Shown: positions 9,877 through 64,000 of the stretch, piece after piece
How positions within the stretch are numbered: position 1 is the stretch's first letter
Layout: each line of letters opens with the position of its first letter
NCBI GenBank assembly: GCA_965223905.1
Contig: CBDCXV010000010.1
Coordinates: 1,824,001-1,888,000, forward strand
Direction of reading: 5' to 3'
DNA: 64,000 bases
Origin: Candidatus Latescibacterota bacterium
GTDB taxonomy: Bacteria > Latescibacterota > UBA2968 > UBA8231
Translations under genes and position numbers: made by a program
Notes under the pieces: model-generated
What the model was told of the DNA's origin: nothing
Database searches by the model: none
The model's input: only the letters and a program-made list of their open reading frames with translations

Positions 9877-10949
9877 TAGAATGACCTCAAGAGAGGGTTG
9901 ATGCTTCCTATCTAGTGGTTATCCGAGCCCACTGTCAAACGGGCGGAGTGGGCGACTAGGCGGCTGTTTCAGGGCTGTGGTGGCAGCGGCTGCTACGACT
10001 CCCAGGTACGTTCTCAGCGCGCTGAGATGTCCCGCGCTTCGCCCTGTCTCGTATCGAGGGCAAGGGCAAGATGATTGGCGCCGTGCCTGGATTCGAGGCG
10101 CAACGCCGTCGTGTCCTGAACAGCCGGACTGCTGCCGGGGCCCTCGAAAACCTCCCGTCCGTTCCCCCACCCCTTCACCAGACCATCGTAGCCGAGGTGG
10201 ACGTCGACCAGGTCCCCTGGCCCCACTTCGATGTCCACGACAAAGTATACGAGTCCGCCGCGGCTTTCGATGACGTTTCCGGCATCGATGAAGTTGTAGC
10301 CCGGCGTATGAGGAATACCATCCTCGGGCATACGCACCGGACGAATTTCAACGAGCCCGCCTCCGGATCCGGCTCAGGTGCCGCCTCGAGGCCGCGATGG
10401 GTCTCCACCAGATCACTGACCAGCATTTCGTCGATTAAATCGGCTCCGAAGAGGACGTCGGCTACGTAGATGTCCGGCTTCGTCCACTGGCCCAGCTTCG
10501 GGTCTTCGTTGGCGATGGCGTTGCTGTAGAGCTGAGGGAAAACCGATGGCTGTTATCCGGGCGGCGGGCGACGCCCATGTAGGAGTTGTCCGGGTGAGGC
10601 CCGGAGGGCAGCACGCAAATCAGGAAACATTCACCATCGATGACCCTGAAGATGCCCGTGTGTGCGGCATGGTCTTCTTCCTCGTGTATGCGGATGTCGA
10701 TCTGGTCCCAGCGGCCCGAGATGTAGACCCGGCCATCTACGGTCCAGCAGGCGGGACCGGTCACACTGACCTCCAGTTGCTGCATATCCCACTTCTCGAA
10801 CGGGTGTTGGCTGTGGCACAGTTTGGGTTTCTTGAGGCCGCTTTCGCACCGCATGAGCATCGTGGCCGTGCCGTCAGGCAGGATTTCCAGATAGCATTCG
10901 TTCGCCATGTCCTCCGATGAATCGTTTATTGGTCGGACATCGCCCAGTT

Positions 10950-12350
10950 GAGGTCACGTCAAAAGGTGTGTAAATGAGATCAGGCGACCCGCTTCAACCT
11001 TCTCTTGGTGGATGTCTTTTCGTTCTTGATGGGTTTCCCATCCTGGTATTGTTGTCCGGCGTAGACGAGGGGCAGTAATTCGGGCGCATTGAGTTTTCGA
11101 AAGCGTTTTTCTGCCACCATCAACACACGCCAAATCAGAGCGGTCGCTCCCTGGACGCGTTTGTAGCGTTTTCCGGCATTAGTCCTCAAGCGTACCGAAG
11201 CAAAGGGGCTCTCGACCGGATTGGTTGTGCGCAGGTGTTTCCAGTGCTCCTTGGGAAAGTCGTAGAAGGTGACCATGCGCTCCCAGTCGCGTTCGAGGGT
11301 GGCTACCGCCTGCGGATACCGGTCGCGGTAGCGGCGGGCAAACGTGGTACGTCGTTTCTCGGCCTCCTGGCGCGTCTCGGCCGAAGGGATCTGCGTCAGC
11401 AACGCCCGAGCCTTTCCCTGAACCCGCTTCGGCAGGTCATCGAGCACGTTGAGGATCTTGTGATTCCAGCAGCGCTGGTGCGATGCCTGCGGCCACACCT
11501 GTTCGGTGGCGCTCCAAATTGGGAGGCCCCCGTCGGCCATCAACAGCAGCGGGGCCCGCAGACCCCGATCGCGCAGGTCGCGCAGGACCTTCAGCCAGGA
11601 CTCCGTCGACTCGCGGTGGCCGGGCCACACGGCCAGTACCTCTTTCCGGCCATCACTCATGGCGCCGATGACGACCAGCAGGGCCGCCTTGTCCTTCTCC
11701 AACCCGGCCTTGACGTAGATGCCATCCGCCCACGCATACACCAGTTCGCGGTCGTCGAGACGTCGCTCTCGCCAAGTCTCCAGCTCCTCCTCCCACTGCG
11801 CCCGCAGCCGGCCAATGGACGAAGCCGACAGGGGAGCGCCGTTGCCCAAAAGCCCCCGCAAAGCCAGTTCGAAGTCACCCTGAGACAGCCCGTGCAGGTA
11901 GAGCTCGGGCAACATCCGGGTCACCTCGTGGGTACGGCGCATGAACAGCGGCAGAATACGACTCTCAAAGCGCTCTTCCAATCCCCGAACGCGCGGCCGT
12001 CTCACCTCGATGGTGCCCGACATCAACGACACCTGTCGCAGTTTGCCGTGTCCGTTGCGGGAGCCGGGGGTGCCGTCTACGGCGGACCGTCGCTGGTAGC
12101 GCGTCCGCCCCAGAAACTCCGTCACCTCCTCCTCCAGAACCCGTTGCAACAGATCCTGGATCGAGGATCGGGCCCAGTTTTCCAACGTGGCGAACGTGGG
12201 CATGGCCGGGGCTACAGATTCCAGCGTAGATTCTCTCATGGCGACTCTCTCCTTCCGTGCCCGGAGGCTACCGGGCGGTTTTGGTTGGAACTGTATAATG
12301 GAAGGTTAGGGTCGCCTTTTCTCTTTTTCCACACCTATTGAAGGTAGCTC
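10950..12350 (-). mobile_element. IS256-family insertion sequence
   Basis: Imperfect terminal IRs GAGGTCACGTCAAAAGGTGTG / GAGCTACCTTCAATAGGTGTG; flanks gcccagtt (10942-10949) and acccagtt (12351-12358) form a near-perfect 8-bp TSD. Confidence 0.9.
10980..12239 (-). CDS. tnp: IS256 (Mutator-type) DDE transposase, intact
   Basis: RNG, LYLHGLS, WADGIY, LRDRGL, MADG, QRCWNHK and LRTTNPVES motifs. Confidence 0.95.
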   Translation of the reverse strand: MRESTLESVAPAMPTFATLENWARSSIQDLLQRVLEEEVTEFLGRTRYQRRSAVDGTPGSRNGHGKLRQVSLMSGTIEVRRPRVRGLEERFESRILPLFMRRTHEVTRMLPELYLHGLSQGDFELALRGLLGNGAPLSASSIGRLRAQWEEELETWRERRLDDRELVYAWADGIYVKAGLEKDKAALLVVIGAMSDGRKEVLAVWPGHRESTESWLKVLRDLRDRGLRAPLLLMADGGLPIWSATEQVWPQASHQRCWNHKILNVLDDLPKRVQGKARALLTQIPSAETRQEAEKRRTTFARRYRDRYPQAVATLERDWERMVTFYDFPKEHWKHLRTTNPVESPFASVRLRTNAGKRYKRVQGATALIWRVLMVAEKRFRKLNAPELLPLVYAGQQYQDGKPIKNEKTSTKRRLKRVA

Positions 12351-26671: not shown

Positions 26672-27007
26672 GGAAAATCTCCTTGATCGGGATCGAATTC
26701 CCGTAATGTGAGCCGGAGAATCTTGATCGCTACGGCAGTGGCTAATCCAGTCGTTAATATAACCTATTTGACTGCCGTTTCCGACGAGACAAAGGAGGCG
26801 GGAACCAAGCGGTTCATGAATGTTAACGACCATTCACATGGCACGCCGCGCTCGTAACGACATGGTGCTGTACTCAGCCAGCAGCGCTGAGCGGCTATCA
26901 AACCCAAGATGGCGCAATTCAACGAAATGGCATTTTATTTGGGCTATATCCGGGTTTTTCGAAGGGCCATTTTTAGCGTTTACAGAGGGAAATATTGCCC
27001 TATTCAT

Positions 27008-27052
27008 ACTGTACGGAATCCGACTGTACGGAATCCGACTGTACGGAATCCG
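27008..27052. repeat. 3 x 15-bp tandem repeat ACTGTACGGAATCCG
   Basis: Seen directly; the corresponding sequence is single-copy in the other ISL3. Confidence 0.95.
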
Positions 27053-27546
27053 ACCGGAATCTGCGCAGGGATATCGAGGTCTCCGACGCACAGGTAGATC
27101 AGGTCGGAAAAAGCCTCCAGCGTCTTGAATCCACTGGCGCGGTTCTTGACCATGCGGATGATGCGGTTGAGGCCTTTGGCGACGGCGTTGGTCAGGTGCG
27201 TGTCGACGAAAGCGGTGATGCCGGCCGCATGCTTGCGCACGGTGTTGACGAACGTGCGCAAGGGCTGCAGGCGGCTGCGCTGGGCGTCCGTGGTCCACTC
27301 CTTGAGGAAGCATGCGGCCGCCCAGCGCGCCTTGTAGCGCCAGAAGTGCTCGAACTCGTCCTTCAGCCGCCAGGCGCGGTAGATACGCCGGTTGGCCTTC
27401 TCCAGGGTTTTGAGCGTGCGCCGGTCCTTTCGCGAGCGATGGGCCGAAGGGCGCAACAGCACCCAGCGCAGGCCCTTGAGCAGCTTGCGGTCCTCGCCGC
27501 AGGCCGCCGATGAAGGTCGCGCTCAGGTCGCAGCAGGCCCAGCGGA

Positions 27547-27570
27547 CCTGCCTGTGCCGCGGCAGACAGG
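27547..27570 (-). repeat. 24-bp hairpin mini-insertion CCTGCCTGTGCCGCGGCAGACAGG
   Basis: Absent from ISL3 copy 2 (GCGGA|TGCG at 52830/52831); no TSD. Confidence 0.85.
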
Positions 27571-28148
27571 TGCGCGCCTTCTGGAAGGCGCTGAGCCGGT
27601 CCCGAAAGAAGGCGTCGATGGTCTCCCTCGCCTTGCCCTTGCCGACCCAGACGACGCAGGAACGCTCCAGGTCGTAGACCAGGGTGGCGTATTTATGGCC
27701 CTTGGCGTAGGAGACCTCGTCGATGCCCACCGTCTTCAGCCCGCGGATGCGGTGCCCCGTACGCCGACGCGCGATGAGGCGGTGCAGGAGGTCGGACAGG
27801 GTCGAGGGAGCCAAGCCCAGCAGGCGCGCGGCGGTGACCTGCGGCATCCACTGGCAGTACTTCAGCAGCAAGTATTCGAAACGATAGCTGACCTGGGCCG
27901 ACGGAGCCGCCCAGGGAACCTCCTCGACGCGACGGCCATGGGTCGGACAGCGCATCTCTCGAGGGGCGTGATGCAGCCAGAGGGTACGGCCGCAGACGCG
28001 GACATCGCGCCAGCGACGGGGCTCCATGACCTGAACGATCTTGCCCCGGCGTCAGCACTTGGGACACCGGCACCCGTTCTTGTGGGGCTTCACCGCAACC
28101 ACGACGGCTGCTTCCTGCCCGCGTCCTTCGAACCACACGTCGACAGCG

Positions 28149-28178
28149 CCTGTCTGCGTGCGTTCACGCACAGGCAGG
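28149..28178 (+). repeat. 30-bp hairpin mini-insertion CCTGTCTGCGTGCGTTCACGCACAGGCAGG
   Basis: Absent from ISL3 copy 2 (GCG|CGAAATCCC near 53408); same scaffold as the 27547 insert, opposite orientation. Confidence 0.85.
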
Positions 28179-28346
28179 CGAAATCCCTTGAATTTGAACA
28201 GCTTCGAGACGAACTTCATAGCGGTCATAGGTCGCTTTCCCTTCCCTTTCTTGGGGAGTGCTTAGTGGGGATACACCAAGCATAGGGAACGACCTATGGC
28301 CTTGTCATGTACTCAGGTTTCGGCGTTGAAAAACCCGGATAGACCC

Positions 28347-49098: not shown

Positions 49099-49821
49099 GC
49101 TCTGCCTTTCCGGTTGACCGGGATCTCCCATAGTGCCGCCGTCACCGCACGGCGTGCCGTTTCGCAGGCAGCGCCCGGGAATCGCAGTATGGATCTGACG
49201 GGCATTGAGAAAGAAAAGGAAGGTTCGATTGGTCTGGGCCGCAATTACCTGACTCGATCCCAACGCCAGATGTTGACGTAATCCTGTTCCGACGGACGAT
49301 CCTCCGGCGGCACCATAGTCAGCTGGTAGAGGTCTCCGGTTGAATCAGCGATGTAGAAATCGCCGGTTTCTGACCGGAGTCTCGCAGGCTCCGCCTACAT
49401 GTTACTGAGAATCCGCCCCCGCTCGCCAATCAGCGAGAAGATAACCCCCCATACCCCGTTCACGGTGACCTCCCCGAGGATGAGGCCGAGAAAAAAGGGC
49501 TTGAGGTTCTGATAGAGTCGGGCGCCGCCGTAGTGCATGATGGTAAGCTTGATGCCCCAGGCCACGAGGGAGGTGAACCAGATGTAGCCGGTGAGCCAGC
49601 CGACGCTGAGGGCGAATCCGAGGGGGTGGAAGGGCCACCAGGACCAGCGATACTGGGCCCACGAGAGAAATCCCGACCCGAGGCCGCCGATCGTCTTGAA
49701 GAGCCAGCCGCGCATGTTCGCCTCAGGCGTCCCGACGATCTCTCTGGCGATGCGCGGCCATCCGTGAGCGCCGGTCCAGCTGATGCCTTCTAGATTGATG
49801 GCGCCATAGGCGTAGCATAAG

Positions 49822-51491
49822 CCTGAATCCGTGATCACTTCTATAGCAAATGGTCAAGTTTGATATTTAGCATGATCAGGCACTTCTCAACAGAGGATTT
49901 GGGTGTCAACGACTCGCCATTACGGCTGATGCCGCTGTCGGTGGCTCTCGACGTCGGTGGGAGTCGCAAGAACGGGCATACGGGTGCCTTGCGTACGGCG
50001 GAGAGTCGAGTGCGGGTGAGATCGTCGCCTTCAGGTGCACACACGCAGGTAGGTCCGTCTCCAGACATCGAACCAGGGATTGAAACACCCGAAGCTGAGG
50101 CCGAAACGGCGCGCATGCCGGACCCAGCGGGCCGCTTGGTACATGAGATCGAGAAGGACGCTGCGGAGACGACGACGGCCGGCCTTTTTACGAAAAGCCA
50201 CGTGCTTTTCGGGGGGCAGATTGCCGGACTCGCGCAGACCGATTTGGCCGCACAGGCGCAGAGCGTTGTAGGCCATCATGGCCAGCAGCAGCAGGAGCGC
50301 GTTGGTGGCGAACTTGCCCGACGGCAGGCGTTCCAGATCCAGGTCCGTTTTCAACTCGGAGTGGAATTGCTCGCAGGTGCTGTGCTCGCGGTAGAGCCGG
50401 ATCACGTGCGCCGGCGGCGCCATCAGGTTGGTCCACCAGGTCTGCACCTCGATTTCGGGGATCAGCAGCGCCTGACCGTCGACGCTGATCGTGCGCCGCA
50501 CGACCTCGTAAACGACGCGTTCGAAGGTGTCCTTGCGCTCGCACACCAGCGAGCCGGTGAAGATCTCCTTGCCGGGCCGCGGACAGGTGCGCTCGCCCAG
50601 GGCTTCGGCGTCCTCCAGCCAGGTCTGTTTCGATTCGCTGCGCAGGTTGCGTTTGACGATGAAGTCGGTCTTGGGAGTGCGGCGCAACTGCTGTACGGTG
50701 GCGATGTCGTCATGGGCGCTGTCCATGCGCACCAGCAGCTTTTCCTTGGTGATGCGGCGCGCCAGCCGCAGCGTCTCTCGAATAAAGTCCGGGGCTCCTT
50801 CCTGGGAGTGCTGACTGCCTTCGCGCAGCTGGCAGTTGAGCAGATACCCTTCCTCGCCCAGGTAGGCGAAGATCGGGGCAAAGCCGTCGACCTTCTTGTA
50901 GGTCCACGACACCCCTTGTTTTTTGGTGTGGGAGTTGTCGAACACCGACACGTCGATATCCAGCGCGATCCAGGGACCGTAGCGCCCGTCGGCGACTTCG
51001 TAACAGGGGGTGAGCGGCGGCGCGTGACGGGCCACCATGTCGGCCGACTCCTCTCGAATGGCGGTCTCCCCCTGTGCGCCCAAGCCATCGAGCCGCTGCC
51101 GCAGCGTGGCCGCCGACGGCACCGCATCCAGGCCCAGGGCCTGGGCGAAGAAGGGATCGGTGCGAAACGCTTCCACCGCCTCGAAATCCGGCTTGCCCAG
51201 CGCCAGCAAGCCGATCATCGACGTCATCACGTCGCCGTGAGAAACCTCGGGGCAGGGTCGCTCCGGCAAGAGGATTTCATCCACCCGCGCGGCCAAGCGC
51301 GTGCGTCCCATCAAGGCCCCGATCAAGGCCAAGCCCGAATGCGAGGTCAGCGCTTCTTCGCCCTGCGTAACTTCATACGAAACCAGTCGCAATTCTTCAC
51401 CTCCAAGGTGAGTGGATATCCTCCTCTAAGATAGCCCACATTCCCCTCGGAAAACCACCGAAAATCAAGCTCTGGACTTCACGGATTCAGG
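49822..51491 (-). mobile_element. IS1380-family IS
   Basis: IRs CCTGAATCCGTGA / TCACGGATTCAGG; 5-bp TSD ATAAG (49817-49821, 51492-51496). Confidence 0.95.
50031..51392 (-). CDS. tnp: IS1380 DDE transposase
   Basis: LTSHSGL, PSAATLRQ, LDIDVS, LREG, VRMDSAH, YREH..CEQFHSELK, FATN. Confidence 0.9.
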   Translation of the reverse strand: MRLVSYEVTQGEEALTSHSGLALIGALMGRTRLAARVDEILLPERPCPEVSHGDVMTSMIGLLALGKPDFEAVEAFRTDPFFAQALGLDAVPSAATLRQRLDGLGAQGETAIREESADMVARHAPPLTPCYEVADGRYGPWIALDIDVSVFDNSHTKKQGVSWTYKKVDGFAPIFAYLGEEGYLLNCQLREGSQHSQEGAPDFIRETLRLARRITKEKLLVRMDSAHDDIATVQQLRRTPKTDFIVKRNLRSESKQTWLEDAEALGERTCPRPGKEIFTGSLVCERKDTFERVVYEVVRRTISVDGQALLIPEIEVQTWWTNLMAPPAHVIRLYREHSTCEQFHSELKTDLDLERLPSGKFATNALLLLLAMMAYNALRLCGQIGLRESGNLPPEKHVAFRKKAGRRRLRSVLLDLMYQAARWVRHARRFGLSFGCFNPWFDVWRRTYLRVCT

Positions 51492-52148
51492 ATAAGTAGA
51501 TGGTCATGAACGCGGCGCCTATGAAGCTGAGGGAAAGGGCGATCATCATGCCCCAGAAGAGACGCGTTTTTGAGCCCCTTATGGACTCAGCGAGCTTGAT
51601 ACCGTGGGCGCATGCCACCATGGGTGAGGTCCGCGACTGTCCCTGCCACACGAAGGTGAAACCGAGGGCCACCAGGCCTTTCGCGCCCAGTGCCGAGGTG
51701 CCGAACCCGGAAATGACGAAGTAAGCGGGCACGTGGGGGCTTCTCGCCGTGGCGACCCCCGCCGTGGTCACCGCGCGCGCCACCCAGATGAAGAAGATGA
51801 GGCTGACGATGACGAGAATCGGCACGAAAACGGCAGGCACCCCCGAGCGCCACAACCAGAAGGAGATGAACAGGAGGCTGGCGATGAAACCGATGACGGC
51901 TGTGCGGTAGCGCAGTAGCTCCTCGCTGTCGTCGACGCCGGAGTCGGGATTCCAGACCTTCTGCAGCACATCCACCAAGTGTTGGCGGGCGCTCCAGAGG
52001 CCGAAGAGGATGAAAACGATGACGGCGCCGGTGGCCTGGTGGGTCAAGTCCGCAGACTGGTGGTCGTCGTAGCCGCTCTGCAACTCCGTGCTCCTGATAC
52101 CGAGGAAAGTGAACAGGCCATCTTCGAGCTTGCAGAACAGGTAAAAGA

Positions 52149-53612
52149 GGCTATATACGGGTTTTTCAACGTGGTATTTATAGCGTTTCCCCAATGAGAT
52201 TTTTAGGGTTTCATACTGTACGGAATCGGGCCGGAATCTGCGCAGGGATATCGAGGTCTCCGACGCACAGGTAAATCAGGTCGGCAAAGGCATCCAGAGT
52301 TTTAAATCCACTGGCTCGATTCTTGACCATGCGGATAATGCGATTGAGCCCTTCGGCGGCGGCGTTGGTCAGGTGCGTGTCGACGAAGGCGGTGATGCCG
52401 GCCGCCTGCTTGCGCACCGTGTTGACGAACTTGCGCAGGGGCTGCAGGCGGCTGCGCAGGGCCGCCGTCGTCCACTTCTTGAGGAAGCGTTCGGCGGCCC
52501 AGCGCGCCTTGTAGCGCCAGAAGTGCTCGAACTCGTCCTTCAGGCGCCAGGCGCGGTAGATGCGGCGGTTGGCCTTCTCCAGGGTTTGGAGCGTGCGCCG
52601 GTCCTTTCGCGAGCGCTGGGCGGAGTGATGCAGCAGCACCCAGCGCAGGCCCTTGAGCAGCTTGCGGTCCTCGCCACAGGCTTGCCGCCACTGCTCCTTG
52701 CGCACCTCGTCGACGGCTTCGTTGAGGGCCTTGACGACGTGGAATCGGTCCAGGACCAACTCGGCGTTGGGACAATGCTGCCGGATGGCGCCGATGAAGG
52801 TCTCGCTCAGGTCGCAGCAGGCCCAGCGGATGCGGTCCTTCTGGAAGGCGCTGAGATGGTCCCGGAAAAACGCGTCGATGGTCTTCCGTGCCTTGCCCTT
52901 GCCGACCCAGACGACACGGGAGCGTTCCAGGTCGTAGACCAGGGTAGCGTATTTATGGCCCTTGGCGTAGGAGATCTCGTCGATGCCGAGGGTCTTCAGC
53001 CGGCGGATGCGGTGCCCCGTACGCCGGCGCTCGATGAGCCGGTGCAGCTGGTCGGACAGGGTCGACGGGGCCAGACCCAGCAGGCGCGCGGCGGCGGCCT
53101 GCGTCATCCACTGGCAGTACCTCAGCAGCAGGTATTCGAAGCGGTAGCTGACCTGGGCCGAGGGCGCCGCCCAGGGCACCTCCTCGACGCGACGGCCGTG
53201 GGTCGGGCAGCGGATCTCCCGAGGGGCGTGGTGCAACCAGAGGGTACGGCCGCAAACGCGGACGTCGCGCCAGCGGCGGAACTCCATGACCTGTACGATC
53301 TTGCCGCGGCGCCCACACTCGGGACACCGGCACCCGTTCCTTTGGGGCTTCACCGCGACCACGACGGCCGCTTCTTCCCCGTGTCCTTCGAACCACACGC
53401 CCACCGCGCGAAATCCCTTGAATTGGAACAGCTTGGAGACGAACTTCATAGCGGTCATAGGTCGCCTTCCCTTCCCTTTCTTGGGGAGTGCTTGATGGGG
53501 ATACACCAAGCATAGGGAACGACCTATGGCCTTGTCATGTACTCAGATGGACAGCAAGGGCTCAGGTACTTTCCGTACTTACGTTTCGGCGTTGAAAAAC
53601 CCGGATAGACCC
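52149..53612 (-). mobile_element. ISL3-family IS, intact copy 2
   Basis: IRs GGCTATATACGGGTTTTTCAACG / GGGTCTATCCGGGTTTTTCAACG; flanking duplication CAGGTAAAAGA (52138-52148, 53613-53623). Confidence 0.93.
52211..53509 (-). CDS. tnp: ISL3 transposase (true start may be ~53458)
   Basis: CPECG zinc finger, GIDE...KGHKY, CCDL, DRFHVVK, TNAAAEGLN..I..VK..ASGF. Confidence 0.93.
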   Translation of the reverse strand: MVYPHQALPKKGKGRRPMTAMKFVSKLFQFKGFRAVGVWFEGHGEEAAVVVAVKPQRNGCRCPECGRRGKIVQVMEFRRWRDVRVCGRTLWLHHAPREIRCPTHGRRVEEVPWAAPSAQVSYRFEYLLLRYCQWMTQAAAARLLGLAPSTLSDQLHRLIERRRTGHRIRRLKTLGIDEISYAKGHKYATLVYDLERSRVVWVGKGKARKTIDAFFRDHLSAFQKDRIRWACCDLSETFIGAIRQHCPNAELVLDRFHVVKALNEAVDEVRKEQWRQACGEDRKLLKGLRWVLLHHSAQRSRKDRRTLQTLEKANRRIYRAWRLKDEFEHFWRYKARWAAERFLKKWTTAALRSRLQPLRKFVNTVRKQAAGITAFVDTHLTNAAAEGLNRIIRMVKNRASGFKTLDAFADLIYLCVGDLDIPAQIPARFRTV

Positions 53613-54497
53613 CAGGTAAAAGAACCAGATGCTGAAGGTGATCTGCAGATTGACCAGGTAGAAGAAACCGATCCAGGCGAAGCTGAAGGCCATGGGCAGG
53701 TGGATCATCCCGCGCCACAACCTGATCGGCTCCAGCCGGAAGTTGAACTCGGGCACGGCGGGAAAGAACTCGTGCAGTCCGGTACAGCTGAAGTAGACGA
53801 AGGGGATCGCGAAACCGACCCACATGATCGGGCTGCGGAAGAGGGGCGCGACAGCGCCGAGGGCCCCCTCGCCCTTCTCGATCATCCTGTTCGGCAGCTC
53901 CATCATGGGGTAGGAGAGGCGTTCGTGCACTGACCACTGGCGATGCAGGATGGAACTGACACAGACGAGCATGAAGCCCATGGCCATGATGAGGGAGAAC
54001 CAGTAGGCCAGTGGTTCGATCCACGCTGACCAGGCGATGGAGGCACCTCTTGGGAGGCCCTCGTAGAAGTGCATGATCGACTGCATGTCCTGCGGCACCA
54101 TCCAGGTGGGAATGTGATCGTGGATGAGCTCGGCGTAGCGGTTCTCGGGGGTGGCGTAGTAGTAGGGAAACACCATGGTGCCGAGGAGGAAGAACATGAG
54201 CCCCCAGGTCGGCGTGGTGACCGCCATCAGGAGCATGCAATAGACGAGCACGAGATCGGCCCGCGAGAGCGTGAAGTGACCCCGCACGAGGCTGCAGAGA
54301 ACGTTGACGACGAGGAGAAGGACGAGGAAAAGGAAGATGGCGCCCGGCGACGAGGGGTTGAACCCGATATGGAAATACGTGAAGGCGAGCCCATATGGAG
54401 CCACCAGCCCGACGGCGAGGCTCATGGCCGCTCCGATGAGGAGTCCCTTCAAGGAAAAAGGTGAAGGGGGGTTCATGAAACGCTCATGGGATTACCT

Positions 54498-61166: not shown

Positions 61167-61213
61167 GATGCGGCATGCTTAGGGTGCTCTGGCGCAGAAC
61201 GTCTTGGCATCGC

Positions 61214-63142
61214 CTACATGTTGCTGAGAAACCGCCCCCGCTCGCCAATCAGCGAGAAGATAATCCCCCATACCCCGTTCACGGTGACCTCCCCGAGGAT
61301 GAGGCCGAGAAAGAAGGGCTTGAGGCTCTGATACAGTCGGGCGCCACCGTAGTGCAGGATGGTGAGCTTGATGACCCAGGCCACGGGGCAGGTGAACCAG
61401 ATGTAGCCGGTGAGCCAGCCGACGCTGAGGCCGAAACCGAGGGGGTGGAAGGGCCACCAGGCCCAGCGGTGCTGGGCCAACGAGAGCAAGCCCGACGCGA
61501 GACCGCCGATCGCCTTGAACAACCACCCGCGCATGCTGGCGTCGGGCGGATCGAGAATCTCTCTGGCGATGCGCGGCCATCCGTGCGCGCCCGTCCAGCT
61601 GATGCCGTTGAGATTGATGGCGCCATAGATGTGGGACAGGTAGATGGTCATGAAGGCGGCGCCGATGAAGCTCAGCGAAAGGGCGATCATCATGCCCCAG
61701 AAGAGACGCGTCTTCGAGCCGACAATGGATTCGGCGAGCTTGATCCCGTGAGCGCAGGCCACCATGGGTGAGGTTCGCGACTCTCCCTGCCACACGAAGG
61801 TGAAGTCGAGGGCCACCAGGCCTTTCGCACCCAGCGCCGAGGTGCCGAATCCGGATATAATGAAATAAGCGGGCACGTGAGGGCTTCTGGCCGTGGCCAC
61901 ACCCGCCGTGGTCACCGCCCGCGCCACCCAGATGAAGAAGATGAGGCTGACGACGACGAGAATGGGCACGAAGACGGCGGGCACCCCCGAGCGCCACAGC
62001 CAGACGCAGACGAACAGGAGGCTGGCGACGAAGCCGATGACGGCCGTGCGGTAGCGCAGCAGCTCCTCGCTGTCGTCGACGGCTGACGCGGGATTCCAGA
62101 CCTTCCGTGCCACATCCACGAAGTGCTGGCGGGCGGTCCAGAGGCCGAGGAGGACGAAGACGATGACGGCGCCCGTGGACTGATGGGTCAGGTCCGCGGA
62201 CTGGTGGTCATCGTAGCCGCTCTGCAACTCCGTGCTCCTGATGCCGAGGAAGGTGAACACAGCGTCTTCGACTTTGCAGAACAGGTAGAAGAACCAGATG
62301 CTGAAAGTGATCTGCAGATTGACGAGGTAGAAGAAACCGATCCAGGCGAAACTGAAGGCCATGGACAGGTGGATCATTCTGCGCCACAACGTGATCGTTT
62401 CCAGCCAGAAAGTGAACTCGGGCACGGCGGGATAGAACTCGTGCAGTCCCGTACAGCTGAAGTAGATGACGGGGATCAGGAAGCCGACCTACATGATGCC
62501 GTTGCGGAAGAGGGGCGCCAGCGCGCCGAGAGCACCCTCGCCGCCTTCGATCATCCTGTTCGGCAGCTCCATCATGGGGTAGCTGAGGCGTTCGTGCACC
62601 GACCACTGGCGGTGCAGGATGGAACTGACGCAGACGAGCATGAATCCGATGGCGATGATGAGGGCGAACCAGTAGGCCAGCGGCTCGAGCCACACGGACC
62701 AGGCGATGGAGGCGCCTTTCGGGAGGCCCTCGTAGAAGTGCATGATCGACTGCAAGTCCTGCGGCACGATCCACGTGGGGATGTGATCGTGGATGAGCTC
62801 GGCGTAGCGGTTCTCGGGCGTGGCGTAGTAGTAGGGATACACCATGGTGCCGATGAGGAAGAACATGAGCCCCCAGGTCGGCGTAGTGACCGCCATCAGG
62901 AGCATGCAGTAGACGAGGACGAGATCCGCCCGCGACAGCGTGAAGTGACGCGCCACGAGGCTGCAGAGAACGTTGACGACGAGGAGGACGAGGAAGAAGA
63001 AGATGGCGCCCGGCGACGAGGGGTTGAAGCCGATCTGGAAATACGTGAAGGCGAGGCCGTACGGAGCCGCCAGCCCGACGGCGAGGCTCATGGCCGCTCC
63101 GATGAGGAGTCCCTTCGAGGAAAAGGGGGAAGGGCAATTCAT
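61214..63142 (-). pseudogene. DUF6785/DUF6784-like membrane protein, copy 5, with a single TGG>TAG stop
   Basis: GIM*VGF at 62489-62491 versus IMWVGF in copy 4; both halves are in the same frame. Confidence 0.85.
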
Positions 63143-63234
63143 GAGACGCCTGGGATATGGATCACGTCTTGGCCCTCACTCCGACGGGTTCGGAGGTGAG
63201 GCTGGGGGAACAAAGATGGGGTCGCCTGCCTTCT

Positions 63235-63612
63235 TCAGAGCGATTTCACAGCGACTTGAGTGCCCGCCATCTGCTGGACGACGTGGTCGAGGCAATCGGC
63301 GGCTGACTCGAAGGGGTGATCGGGGTAGGACTCGAGGCTGAAGTTCAGGTCGTTCTCTCCGAAGGCGAGCATGTCGACGCCGGGTTTCGCGAGCTTTCGG
63401 GCGTTCGTGACGGCATTCACGGACTCCAGCTGCAGGATCAGGATGCCGTTGTCATTCCACCACTCGGCGTACTCCAGACGTTCGCCTCTGCCCTCGATGC
63501 CGTACCCTGAGCTGGGTCCCCAGCTCCGTTCGCCCTTCGGCGGATAGTAGAAGGCGTCGACGGCCTCGTCTACGGTGGCCTCGTCTTCGACCTGCGGCAC
63601 CATGATGGCCAG
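63235..63612 (-). pseudogene. HpcH/HpaI aldolase C-terminal fragment
   Basis: IMVPQVE, YYPPKGERSWG, LQLES, PGVDMLAFGENDL. Confidence 0.75.
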
Positions 63613-63782
63613 CGGCACGGTCTGTCCGTCGCGTGGAGATGCTCCATTGAATTCTGCGTGCTCATGCCGATTGACGCCATTCAGGTGGTGCGCGCTGTTC
63701 CGATGGGCTGAGAATCTGCACAGGTGCATACGTCCTTGGCCGCACGCAGGGCACACGCTTGGATCCACGCCCGTCACCTGAA
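63613..63782 (-). mobile_element. IS91-family transposase 3' remnant
   Basis: TGVDPSVCPACGQGRM, then frameshifted VQILSPSEQRAPP*; CPxC and RxPP are typical of the C-terminus of IS91 Y2 transposases. Confidence 0.6.
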
Positions 63783-64000
63783 CCTGAATCCGTGATCACT
63801 TCTATAGCAAATGGTCAAGTTTGATATTTAGCATGATCAGGCACTTCTCAACAGAGGATTTGGGTGTCAACGACTCGCCATTACGGCTGATGCCGCTGTC
63901 GGTGGCTCTCGACGTCGGTGGGAGTCGCAAGAACGGGCATACGGGTGCCTTGCGTACGGCGGAGAGTCGAGTGCGGGTGAGATCGTCGCCTTCAGGTGCA
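63783..64000 (-). mobile_element. Second IS1380 copy, running off the window
   Basis: Matches 49822 onward, including the IR CCTGAATCCGTGA. Confidence 0.95.

Follow-up and report, generated by a model that had tools for sequence, protein, structure and literature searches.

Two Small Hairpin Insertions in a Degraded ISL3 Element and Their Relatives Across Phyla and Phages

The window analyzed here, a stretch of 64,000 nt from a Candidatus Latescibacterota genome, contains a degraded ISL3 insertion sequence that carries two hairpins of 30 and 24 nt. Their presence raises the questions of whether they are true insertions, whether they belong to a wider family, and what could have moved them into the element.

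Two hairpins in one ISL3 copy

The genome (G000; 7.92 Mb, 64% G+C, 11 contigs) contains approximately 20 ISL3 copies with 99.3-100% identity, accompanied by a few older copies or fragments. The assignment to ISL3 is based on Pfam matches to DDE_Tnp_ISL3 and HTH_Tnp_ISL3 in the ORF at 26834-28027, together with the multi-copy nature of the element. The hairpin-bearing element, copy 1 (26942-28316, minus strand), is 84-91% identical to the near-identical copies and has no counterpart in 40 relatives. One of the near-identical copies, copy 2 (52149-53546, minus strand), provides the empty-site reference for both insertions; aligned to copy 1, it gives a mean column identity of 87%. A 107-bp deletion in copy 1 (junction 27504-27505, alignment columns 624-730) breaks the transposase frame, and the loose ends of other copies run on at 27504 with sequence that is missing from copy 1. 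The end of copy 1 comprises three tandem 15-nt units (CTGTACGGAATCCGA, 27009-27053), only one of which is present in copy 2.

Both inserts are exact gaps in the alignment. E2 (28149-28178, plus strand; CCTGTCTGCGTGCGTTCACGCACAGGCAGG) corresponds to a clean gap of 30 columns in copy 2, with a boundary that is ambiguous by 1 nt, and E3 (27547-27570, minus strand; reverse complement CCTGTCTGCCGCGGCACAGGCAGG) to a clean gap of 24 columns. The coordinates, sequences and gaps given for both in the initial annotation were reproduced. E2 is formed by an 8-bp outer stem (CCTGTCTG/CAGGCAGG) that includes a T.G pair, a CA bulge on the 3' side, an inner stem (CGTG/CACG) and a CGTT loop. E3 is the minimal form, comprising a 20-nt scaffold and the 4-nt core CGCG. 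Folded as single-stranded DNA, E2 has a free energy of -8.9 kcal/mol (z -3.0), equaled by 2 of 200 shuffles; E3 alone folds weakly (-4.7 kcal/mol, equaled by 42 of 200). No direct repeats flanking E2 or E3 were found in the copy alignment. When the empty target sites were folded, site A lay in a weak loop and site B in no loop. A degenerate hairpin pattern matched only the E2 and E3 sites in the window (expectation 0.01; none of 100 shuffles reached two), which confirms the earlier impression by eye that the 64 kb hold no further copy.

Copy 2 and about 25 other ISL3 copies or fragments of G000 lack both inserts. The E2 site is empty in every G000 copy or fragment that aligns across it, and also in the ISL3 copies of G002 and G012. 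Because the sites are empty in copy 2 and the other ISL3 copies, E2 and E3 represent insertions rather than deletions elsewhere, and they entered an old, already diverged IS copy. That the inserts might instead have arisen in sequencing or assembly, or represent ancestral sequence that the remaining IS copies have lost, is scarcely credible. The small size of the inserts is the one point in its favor, and it is opposed by contigs from three other public runs (X1, X3, and X5), which may be the source sample of the window. These contigs match 27830-28295 or 27840-28204 with 0 differences, E2 included; among the matches listed, the outside contigs cover the E2 insert and none spans E3. The same module occurs in complete chromosomes and in many assemblies, one nested copy lies at orthologous positions in G000 and G002, and all other ISL3 copies, the G002 and G012 homologs included, lack the 30-nt insert. 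For that insert, the artefact and ancestral readings are already refuted, in line with the original view that the hairpins are not ancestral to ISL3. The exact E2 30-mer also recurs in other phyla, at loci L044, L099, L102, and L135.

Across the whole of G000, the scaffold CCTGTCTGC...GCACAGGCAGG is present in five copies, two of which are those in ISL3 copy 1. The others are a 27-mer located between a PMT_2 gene and a CotH/LTD gene (C10:1191007), and a 30-mer nested in opposite orientation within a 27-mer (C11:1132834-1132890). The same nesting is found at the orthologous position in the sister species G002, and the nested pair is therefore old. For the C10:1191007 copy, no empty orthologous site was obtained, there being no orthologous region in five relatives. 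A self-BLAST of G000 for hairpin indels of 14-80 nt within repeats returned 30 candidates, none of this kind, in a screen that also missed E2 and E3.

Two of the five genomic copies lie 0.6 kb apart, which has a chance of about 0.002 under random placement (10 pairs x 1.6e-4). The reason for this proximity can only be inferred. The initial annotation took it to suggest targeting of the IS, a proposal that is not supported, given the absence of hairpins from the approximately 20 near-identical young ISL3 copies and of any IS copy with them from the relatives. The same two observations point to E2 and E3 as old insertions in neutral DNA.

Anatomy and distribution of the hairpin family

The anatomy of the family was derived from 151 non-redundant elements. 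Lengths range from 20 to 42 nt with modes at 27 and 30 nt (58 elements of 27 nt, 42 of 30, 12 of 28, 9 of 33, 7 of 24, and 5 of 36), and the seven members of 24 nt correspond, like E3, to the scaffold plus 4 nt. In all counted elements the search pattern itself set the outer 20 nt, whose invariance is consequently not evidence of conservation. Forms of 20-21 nt, identified by comparison of filled and empty sites, consist of outer stem and loop only, which identifies the outer stem as the core of the element. The length is a multiple of three in 124 of the 151 elements, a trait noted from the start for E2 and E3. It is kept in 49 of the 56 elements that lie outside any open frame of at least 100 codons and is therefore a property of the family, not a sign of coding selection.

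The CA-bulge fold, with its 8-bp outer stem, 3' CA bulge, 4-bp inner stem and tetraloop, leaves 97.7% of cells paired in 29 distinct 30-mers, and three inner-stem pairs vary on both sides, in 7-8 sequences each. The covariation score is 0.202 versus 0.057, a value reached by none of 500 shuffles. An alternative fold with a 5' GC bulge is worse, with 89.1% of cells paired. The common scaffold, bulged fold and lack of target duplication proposed for the two inserts are supported.

Variation in the outer stem is limited. A version with a T-A pair in place of T.G was found at five sites in total in G041, G042, G043, G087, and G082. With the same loose pattern, the T.G form gives 86, 61, and 109 strand hits in G041, G042, and G043, respectively, and with a stricter pattern 92 in G087 and 14 in G082. 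The T.G pair is therefore maintained. Perfect arms (CCTGCCTGC...GCAGGCAGG) distinguish a sister family, of which the same five genomes contain 28-168 sites each.

These pairs bear on whether the hairpin could spread through RNA, being copied via an RNA intermediate and reverse transcription, a route that is said to have been proposed for the cyanobacterial SDR elements. The conserved T.G outer pair would be G.U in RNA, the inner stem tolerates G.T pairs, and no DNA transposase was found. However, inner-stem G.T pairs (23) are not in significant excess over A.C pairs (15), leaving strand-specific selection on the inner stem unproven. Copies within genes lie in sense as well as antisense orientation, and no linkage to reverse transcriptase was seen, in searches not aimed at that enzyme. 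We regard spread through RNA as improbable.

Scaffold matches are present in 10 of 41 relatives and in 32 of 168 genomes of the phylum, with a reversed-pattern control of 0 in both cases, so the pattern search advised in the initial annotation places the family well beyond the IS. Within the 168-genome survey, element counts range from 0 to 92 in one genus. A scan with one genome per prokaryotic species identified at least 115 stretches; among the matches listed are Planctomycetota (including a complete Brocadia genome), Thermodesulfobacteriota, Zetaproteobacteria, Nitrospinota, Nitrospirota, Verrucomicrobiota, Latescibacterota, Methylomirabilis, WOR-3, Firmicutes, and others. The hairpin was also found in 54 stretches of IMG/VR viral contigs. 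Identical 27- and 30-mers recur in many phyla and viral contigs, and metagenome contigs from the same runs as X1, X3, and X5 display the hairpin with many different flanks. The family is accordingly widespread, and the description "ultra-rare" does not apply to it. An Rfam search of six loci in E-value mode gave no family and one chance match at E 0.99. In the literature searched, strings from the element arms gave only chance primer matches, and two 13-nt strings gave 0.

Insertion sites, nesting and carriers

At least eight pairs of precisely filled and empty sites were identified, none with a target duplication. A DUF1156 methylase gene of G041 is lengthened by nine codons by an in-frame 27-mer, which has GCGGGCG on one side and TCCCGCCCGC on the other and sits at the edge of a hairpin loop; three homologous genes, two copies in G040 and one in G042, lack it. 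A 27-mer in a gene of G029 (L023) is likewise absent from G012 and G000 (L023 compared with L007 and G000). Two further pairs are provided by phages: L214 lacks a 27-mer that is carried by phage contig L187/L205, and L222 lacks two 20-mers that are spaced 46 nt apart in phage L202. Pairs located in other repeats are L021 versus L258, L239 versus L238, and L131 versus a paralogous hairpin. Clean insertion in several genomes and phages substantiates the idea, raised first for the window, of an ultra-small insertion module.

Flanking direct repeats of at least 5 nt occur in 3.8% of 130 non-redundant elements, compared with 2.8% of shuffled flank pairs. In the same set, C occupies position +1 in 78%, and position -1 is mostly G (49%) or A (32%). 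The first base of the element is C and the last is G, so that R^C describes both junctions as well as the target. Flanks that pair over at least 6 bp are found in 13.1% of elements versus 2.8% after shuffling (maximum 6.3% in 200 shuffles). These complementary flanks reflect insertion into the loops of other hairpins and into copies of the element itself. Insertion into the loops of NTS-like hairpins was observed in L035 and L070, and self-nesting at L024, L008, L049, L083, L141, L074, L114, L064, and L144, in addition to the nested copies of G000 and G002. The module thus enters DNA precisely, without target duplication, mostly between a purine and C, and in either orientation. It also lands in genes, in frame where the gene survives.

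Copies reside in ordinary genes, intergenic DNA, other hairpin repeats, copies of the element and phage genomes, in either orientation. Inserts that are in frame and free of stop codons leave long ORFs open; a long DUF499-like ATPase ORF (L206) contains two such copies. In an AT-rich phage contig, four GC-rich copies stand out as insertions and lie within 730 nt of an iteron-like region. Since orientations are mixed within one chromosome and within phage, a strict lagging-strand bias does not fit.

The initial annotation also raised the prospect of a host system that writes hairpins into mobile DNA as a mark or disabling device. Copies in the IS of the window, in MITEs and in phage contigs are consistent with such a system, as are copies in the genes for the DUF1156 methylase and the DUF499-like ATPase, which we take to be defence-associated, and the close spacing of two inserts in one IS and of two in phage L202. 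The approximately 20 young, presumably active ISL3 copies of G000 are nevertheless untouched, and in-frame inserts without stop codons do not inactivate the genes that contain them. Ordinary genes, intergenic DNA, other hairpin repeats and the element itself receive the module as well, and residence in mobile DNA is expected from hitch-hiking and ascertainment. The clustering of neighboring ORFs described below identified no associated gene. A marking system is, on this evidence, very improbable.

Hitch-hiking is directly visible in several genomes. In G087 and G092, the hairpin occupies a fixed place in a mosaic MITE with TAGCAGTCCGTTGAAAAAGTC-type inverted repeats, and in G040 and a Latescibacterota MAG, forms of 33 and 36 nt are found in another MITE with AGTGTCCCGTCCC-type ends. 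The ISL3 element of the window is a third kind of carrier, although a dead one. Once in an IS or a MITE, the hairpin is copied along with its vehicle, and the high copy counts of some genomes do not represent independent insertions. A comparison of copy number with gene content within genus g22 was set aside as confounded because the high counts are MITE-borne.

Carriage by vehicles would also fit a different history for E2 and E3, in which the hairpins were never mobile in this lineage and the old ISL3 copy, or part of it, arrived with both already in place, by horizontal transfer or gene conversion from a hairpin-rich member of the community. The divergence of copy 1 from the ISL3 family of G000 and its lack of a counterpart in the relatives fit such an arrival, as do the presence of just five copies and no candidate enzyme in G000. 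The same-run metagenome contigs, with the hairpin in many contexts, indicate that donors are at hand. However, this history accounts for arrival and not for origin, as insertion into an ISL3 backbone is still required somewhere. A search of 41 genomes gave no ISL3 copy with either insert, and the 30-mer is intact in an IS copy that has itself diverged by 9-16%. We consider import alone rather unlikely.

The explanation that we favor, with moderate confidence, is that the inserts are copies of a non-autonomous, gene-less hairpin insertion module of REP/SDR-like type that is moved in trans. The module is an imperfect hairpin of 20-36 nt built on the constant 8-bp outer stem, in most cases with the 3' CA bulge and a short variable inner stem-loop. 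Within this explanation, E2 and E3 are most likely old insertions kept in neutral DNA of the dead ISL3 element, or were brought in with the IS copy, given that G000 has five copies, no intact candidate enzyme and a nested pair in common with its sister species. The five copies are probably relics.

Known small repeats and the search for a mover

Very small hairpin repeats, namely REP, SDR, and NTS, are known. In the present family, the evidence for seamless insertion is unusually clear and extends to in-frame residence in working genes, self-nesting and recent insertions in phages, and the hairpin sequence is almost unchanged across distant phyla. The modules explain small in-frame indels in proteins and mobile elements, and are therefore relevant to annotation.

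Elhai et al. reportedly suggested in 2008 that the SDR1-8 elements of Nostoc and relatives are the smallest of mobile elements; their reported range is a single cyanobacterial subgroup. They are said to be 21-27 nt long, to have a common hairpin fold and to nest in themselves and in other small repeats, by a mover that was reportedly not known. Compared by this description rather than by sequence, the module has the same size class, fold and nesting habit; unlike the SDR elements, with their reported single subgroup, it spans many phyla and phages. Rickettsia palindromic elements (RPE) are lineage-restricted sequences of about 100-150 bp that survive in frame in protein genes. They resemble the module as palindromes kept in frame within coding sequence, but are far longer and lack its cross-phylum spread. 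Elements of the IS200/IS605 and PATE type require a pair of subterminal hairpins that differ from each other, and their insertion is 3' of a fixed target of 4-5 nt. The recognition of a single-stranded hairpin, as proposed for the module, and the absence of target duplication are common to both; the module, by contrast, consists of one hairpin and nothing else, inserts roughly at R^C, and has no conserved flank of 4-5 nt. DDE-type MITEs differ in that the module has no excess of flanking direct repeats and its filled and empty sites differ without duplication.

REP and REPIN sequences are associated with RAYT transposases of the HUH Y1 type by Di Nocera et al. 2013 (PMC3733652), who also mention RPE, and by Bertels and Rainey 2011 (PMC3116915). 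The module resembles them as an imperfect palindrome of 20-40 nt that is dispersed in many genomes, at times intragenic, with G.T in the stem, a place in mosaic intergenic arrays alongside other hairpins, and no target duplication. However, it has no GTAG or CGTC tag; it ends in CCTG and CAGG, and its flanks are restricted only to R at -1 and C at +1. No RAYT is flanked by this hairpin, those examined being flanked by other hairpins. REPINs are described in two reports (10.1101/2021.07.10.451892 and 10.1101/2024.10.14.618302) as vertically inherited, whereas near-identical copies of the module are present across phyla and phages, are not lineage-specific, and are low in number in most genomes.

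NTS and Ssn-related motifs are described in PMC11893778, which also cites IS200/IS605, as hairpin repeats of 20-50 nt that are recognized as single-stranded DNA, occur in many phyla and are enriched in symbionts; SsnA proteins are GIY-YIG ssDNA nucleases, and the repeats, which carry an oriented flank of the CGTCATTCC type, occur to either side of the ssnA gene. The module is likewise a hairpin repeat in that size class, would be recognized as ssDNA, and is widespread across phyla. Unlike these repeats, it is not found on both sides of a small GIY-YIG gene and instead inserts into the loops of NTS-like hairpins. The element thus works like the REP, SDR and NTS-type hairpin repeats, yet departs from REP/RAYT, Ssn, DDE MITE, and IS200/IS605 systems in the features tested.

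In the proposed mechanism, the hairpin would be recognized as single-stranded DNA by an enzyme acting in trans, which would cut R^C at both ends of the element and at the target and rejoin the strands, in the manner of HUH/RAYT-like peel-and-paste transposition. We infer an HUH-like single-strand cut-and-join reaction from the seamless junctions, the recurrence of R^C at the element ends and at the target, the conserved asymmetry of the T.G pair and bulge, and the preference for hairpin loops; the weak excess of G.T over A.C and the mixed orientations do not help this inference. Action in trans is indicated by a CheckV-complete phage of 27 kb that has at least six copies and encodes no Y1 or GIY-YIG domain.

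The initial annotation had suggested a correlation of the element with RAYT or TnpA. This correlation failed, as neither among 41 relatives nor among the 22 genomes of family f4 does the presence of Y1_Tnp (PF01797) track the element. G087 has 92 element copies and no Y1_Tnp match, and G030 has 19 IS200 copies and no element. G000 contains no intact Y1/HUH gene, its sole match being one broken PF01797 fragment, and tblastn with five RAYT-like proteins gave nothing in G000 or in the fetched spans of 110 genome and 54 viral element loci. The earlier statement that no intact HUH enzyme is encoded in the window therefore holds for the entire genome.

The RAYT-like genes examined are associated with hairpins of their own. 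The stand-alone RAYT of G040, G041, and G042 forms a classical REPtron with a different REP, and in L150, L154, and L156 the RAYT has CGAGGGCAGGATGCCCTCG at its flanks. The DUF1156 methylase contains a RAYT-like domain, which is bordered by GCGGRCGGGACGYCCGC hairpins. In G082, the hairpins around the IS-like RAYT unit are of the sequence GCAGACATTCCTGTCTGC; they have the 9-mer CCTGTCTGC in common with the 5' arm of the element but differ in its pairing. With another hairpin beside each RAYT-like gene examined, and no co-occurrence, Y1/RAYT was rejected as a linked mover.

GIY-YIG/Ssn nucleases were rejected as well. In G042 and G087, a GTCATTCTGAGCG-type motif of their own borders the small GIY-YIG genes, and the only matches in G041, G043, and G000 are long and of UvrC size. 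Clustering of neighboring ORFs (at least 100 aa over 145 loci and over 54 viral loci; 55-400 aa within 1.5 kb over 169 loci) produced no recurrent cross-phylum family, only generic domains or groups of related phages.

It is tempting to speculate that the gene-less hairpin spreads horizontally across phyla and phages by means of an enzyme that is near-universal among hosts, or else highly mobile and so far overlooked, and that is neither RAYT nor Ssn nuclease, inserting seamlessly at R^C in exposed single strands. We put this forward as a tentative possibility. If true, the module would be one of the smallest self-propagating DNA elements. Identification of the mover would explain how mosaic intergenic hairpin arrays are assembled, and could provide a compact enzyme with which single-stranded DNA is cut and rejoined at a hairpin of defined sequence.

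The end hairpins of IS200 were also considered as a source of the module and were rejected, as the intact IS200 of G043 has unrelated end hairpins. In a single case, a degraded IS200 was observed with a 25-nt element located 150 nt upstream.

RAYT-like genes and their flanking hairpins

A DUF1156 DNA methylase of approximately 1,200 residues, the product of a defence-type gene, contains an in-frame embedded RAYT-like HUH Y1 domain of approximately 190 residues (locus L158, 1978–5685, in genome G041; two genes at L159 in G040; L160 in G042). Inverted GCGGRCGGGACGYCCGC hairpins lie on both sides of the embedded domain, an arrangement that is kept in several genomes. Together, the domain and its GCGGRCGGGACGYCCGC hairpins look like a REPtron, a RAYT gene flanked by its own hairpins, that has become fixed within the methylase gene.

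Genome G082 holds two copies (L259, 1234–1929, and L260) of an IS-like unit of approximately 1 kb, in which a RAYT-like ORF of 243 residues is situated between inverted GRGCAGACATTCCTGTCTGCYC hairpins. This 18-nt hairpin is dispersed, with 19–47 sites in G082, G041, and G042, one in the window's own genome (G000), and none in G043. The 9-mer CCTGTCTGC of the GRGCAGACATTCCTGTCTGCYC hairpin also occurs in the hairpin element that is the subject of this study, within its 5′ arm.

Hairpins in MITEs, viral contigs, and other repeats

The studied hairpin also forms an internal module of two mosaic MITE families, both bounded by TIRs (L237–L256 in G087 and G092; L017, L025, L027, L029, L080, and L115). 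Copies within both families differ by whole modules, as in BIMEs. G041, G042, G043, G082, and G087 also hold a sister family, at 28–168 sites per genome, whose hairpins have perfect arms (CCTGCCTGC...GCAGGCAGG) and for the most part measure 33 nt. In L150, one of its copies is located just past the point where the stand-alone RAYT ends with its stop codon.

Among viral contigs, a DUF499/BrxC-like ATPase ORF (IMG/VR contig L206, 2–3052) carries two in-frame copies of the studied hairpin, of 27 and 30 nt, at a distance of 1.9 kb from each other. The AT-rich phage contig L183 contains, at 10300–11300, four GC-rich copies, one of them nested, grouped around an iteron-like repeat region that may be a replication origin.

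Small Ssn-like GIY-YIG genes in L257 (G042) and L258 (G087) have GTCATTCTGAGCG...CGAAGAATC motifs on their flanks; these are NTS/SRM-type pairs in Latescibacterota. Copies of another G000 repeat family are told apart by an 18-nt GC-rich, hairpin-like indel of the GCGGCGGGACCGCCCCTT type (contig C1, 385260; C10, 1973476; C11, 678902 and 1539039).

The ISL3 family and the surroundings of copy 2

ISL3 is present in G000 as approximately 20 copies of 99.3–100% identity, including the hairpin-free copy 2 (52149–53546), and its copies are likewise numerous in the sister species (G002). It looks like an insertion sequence with current or recent activity. Several direct repeats (D1, D2, D4, D6, and D7), 89–98% identical between 49387–54483 and 61206–64000, indicate the duplication of a multi-kb segment around copy 2.
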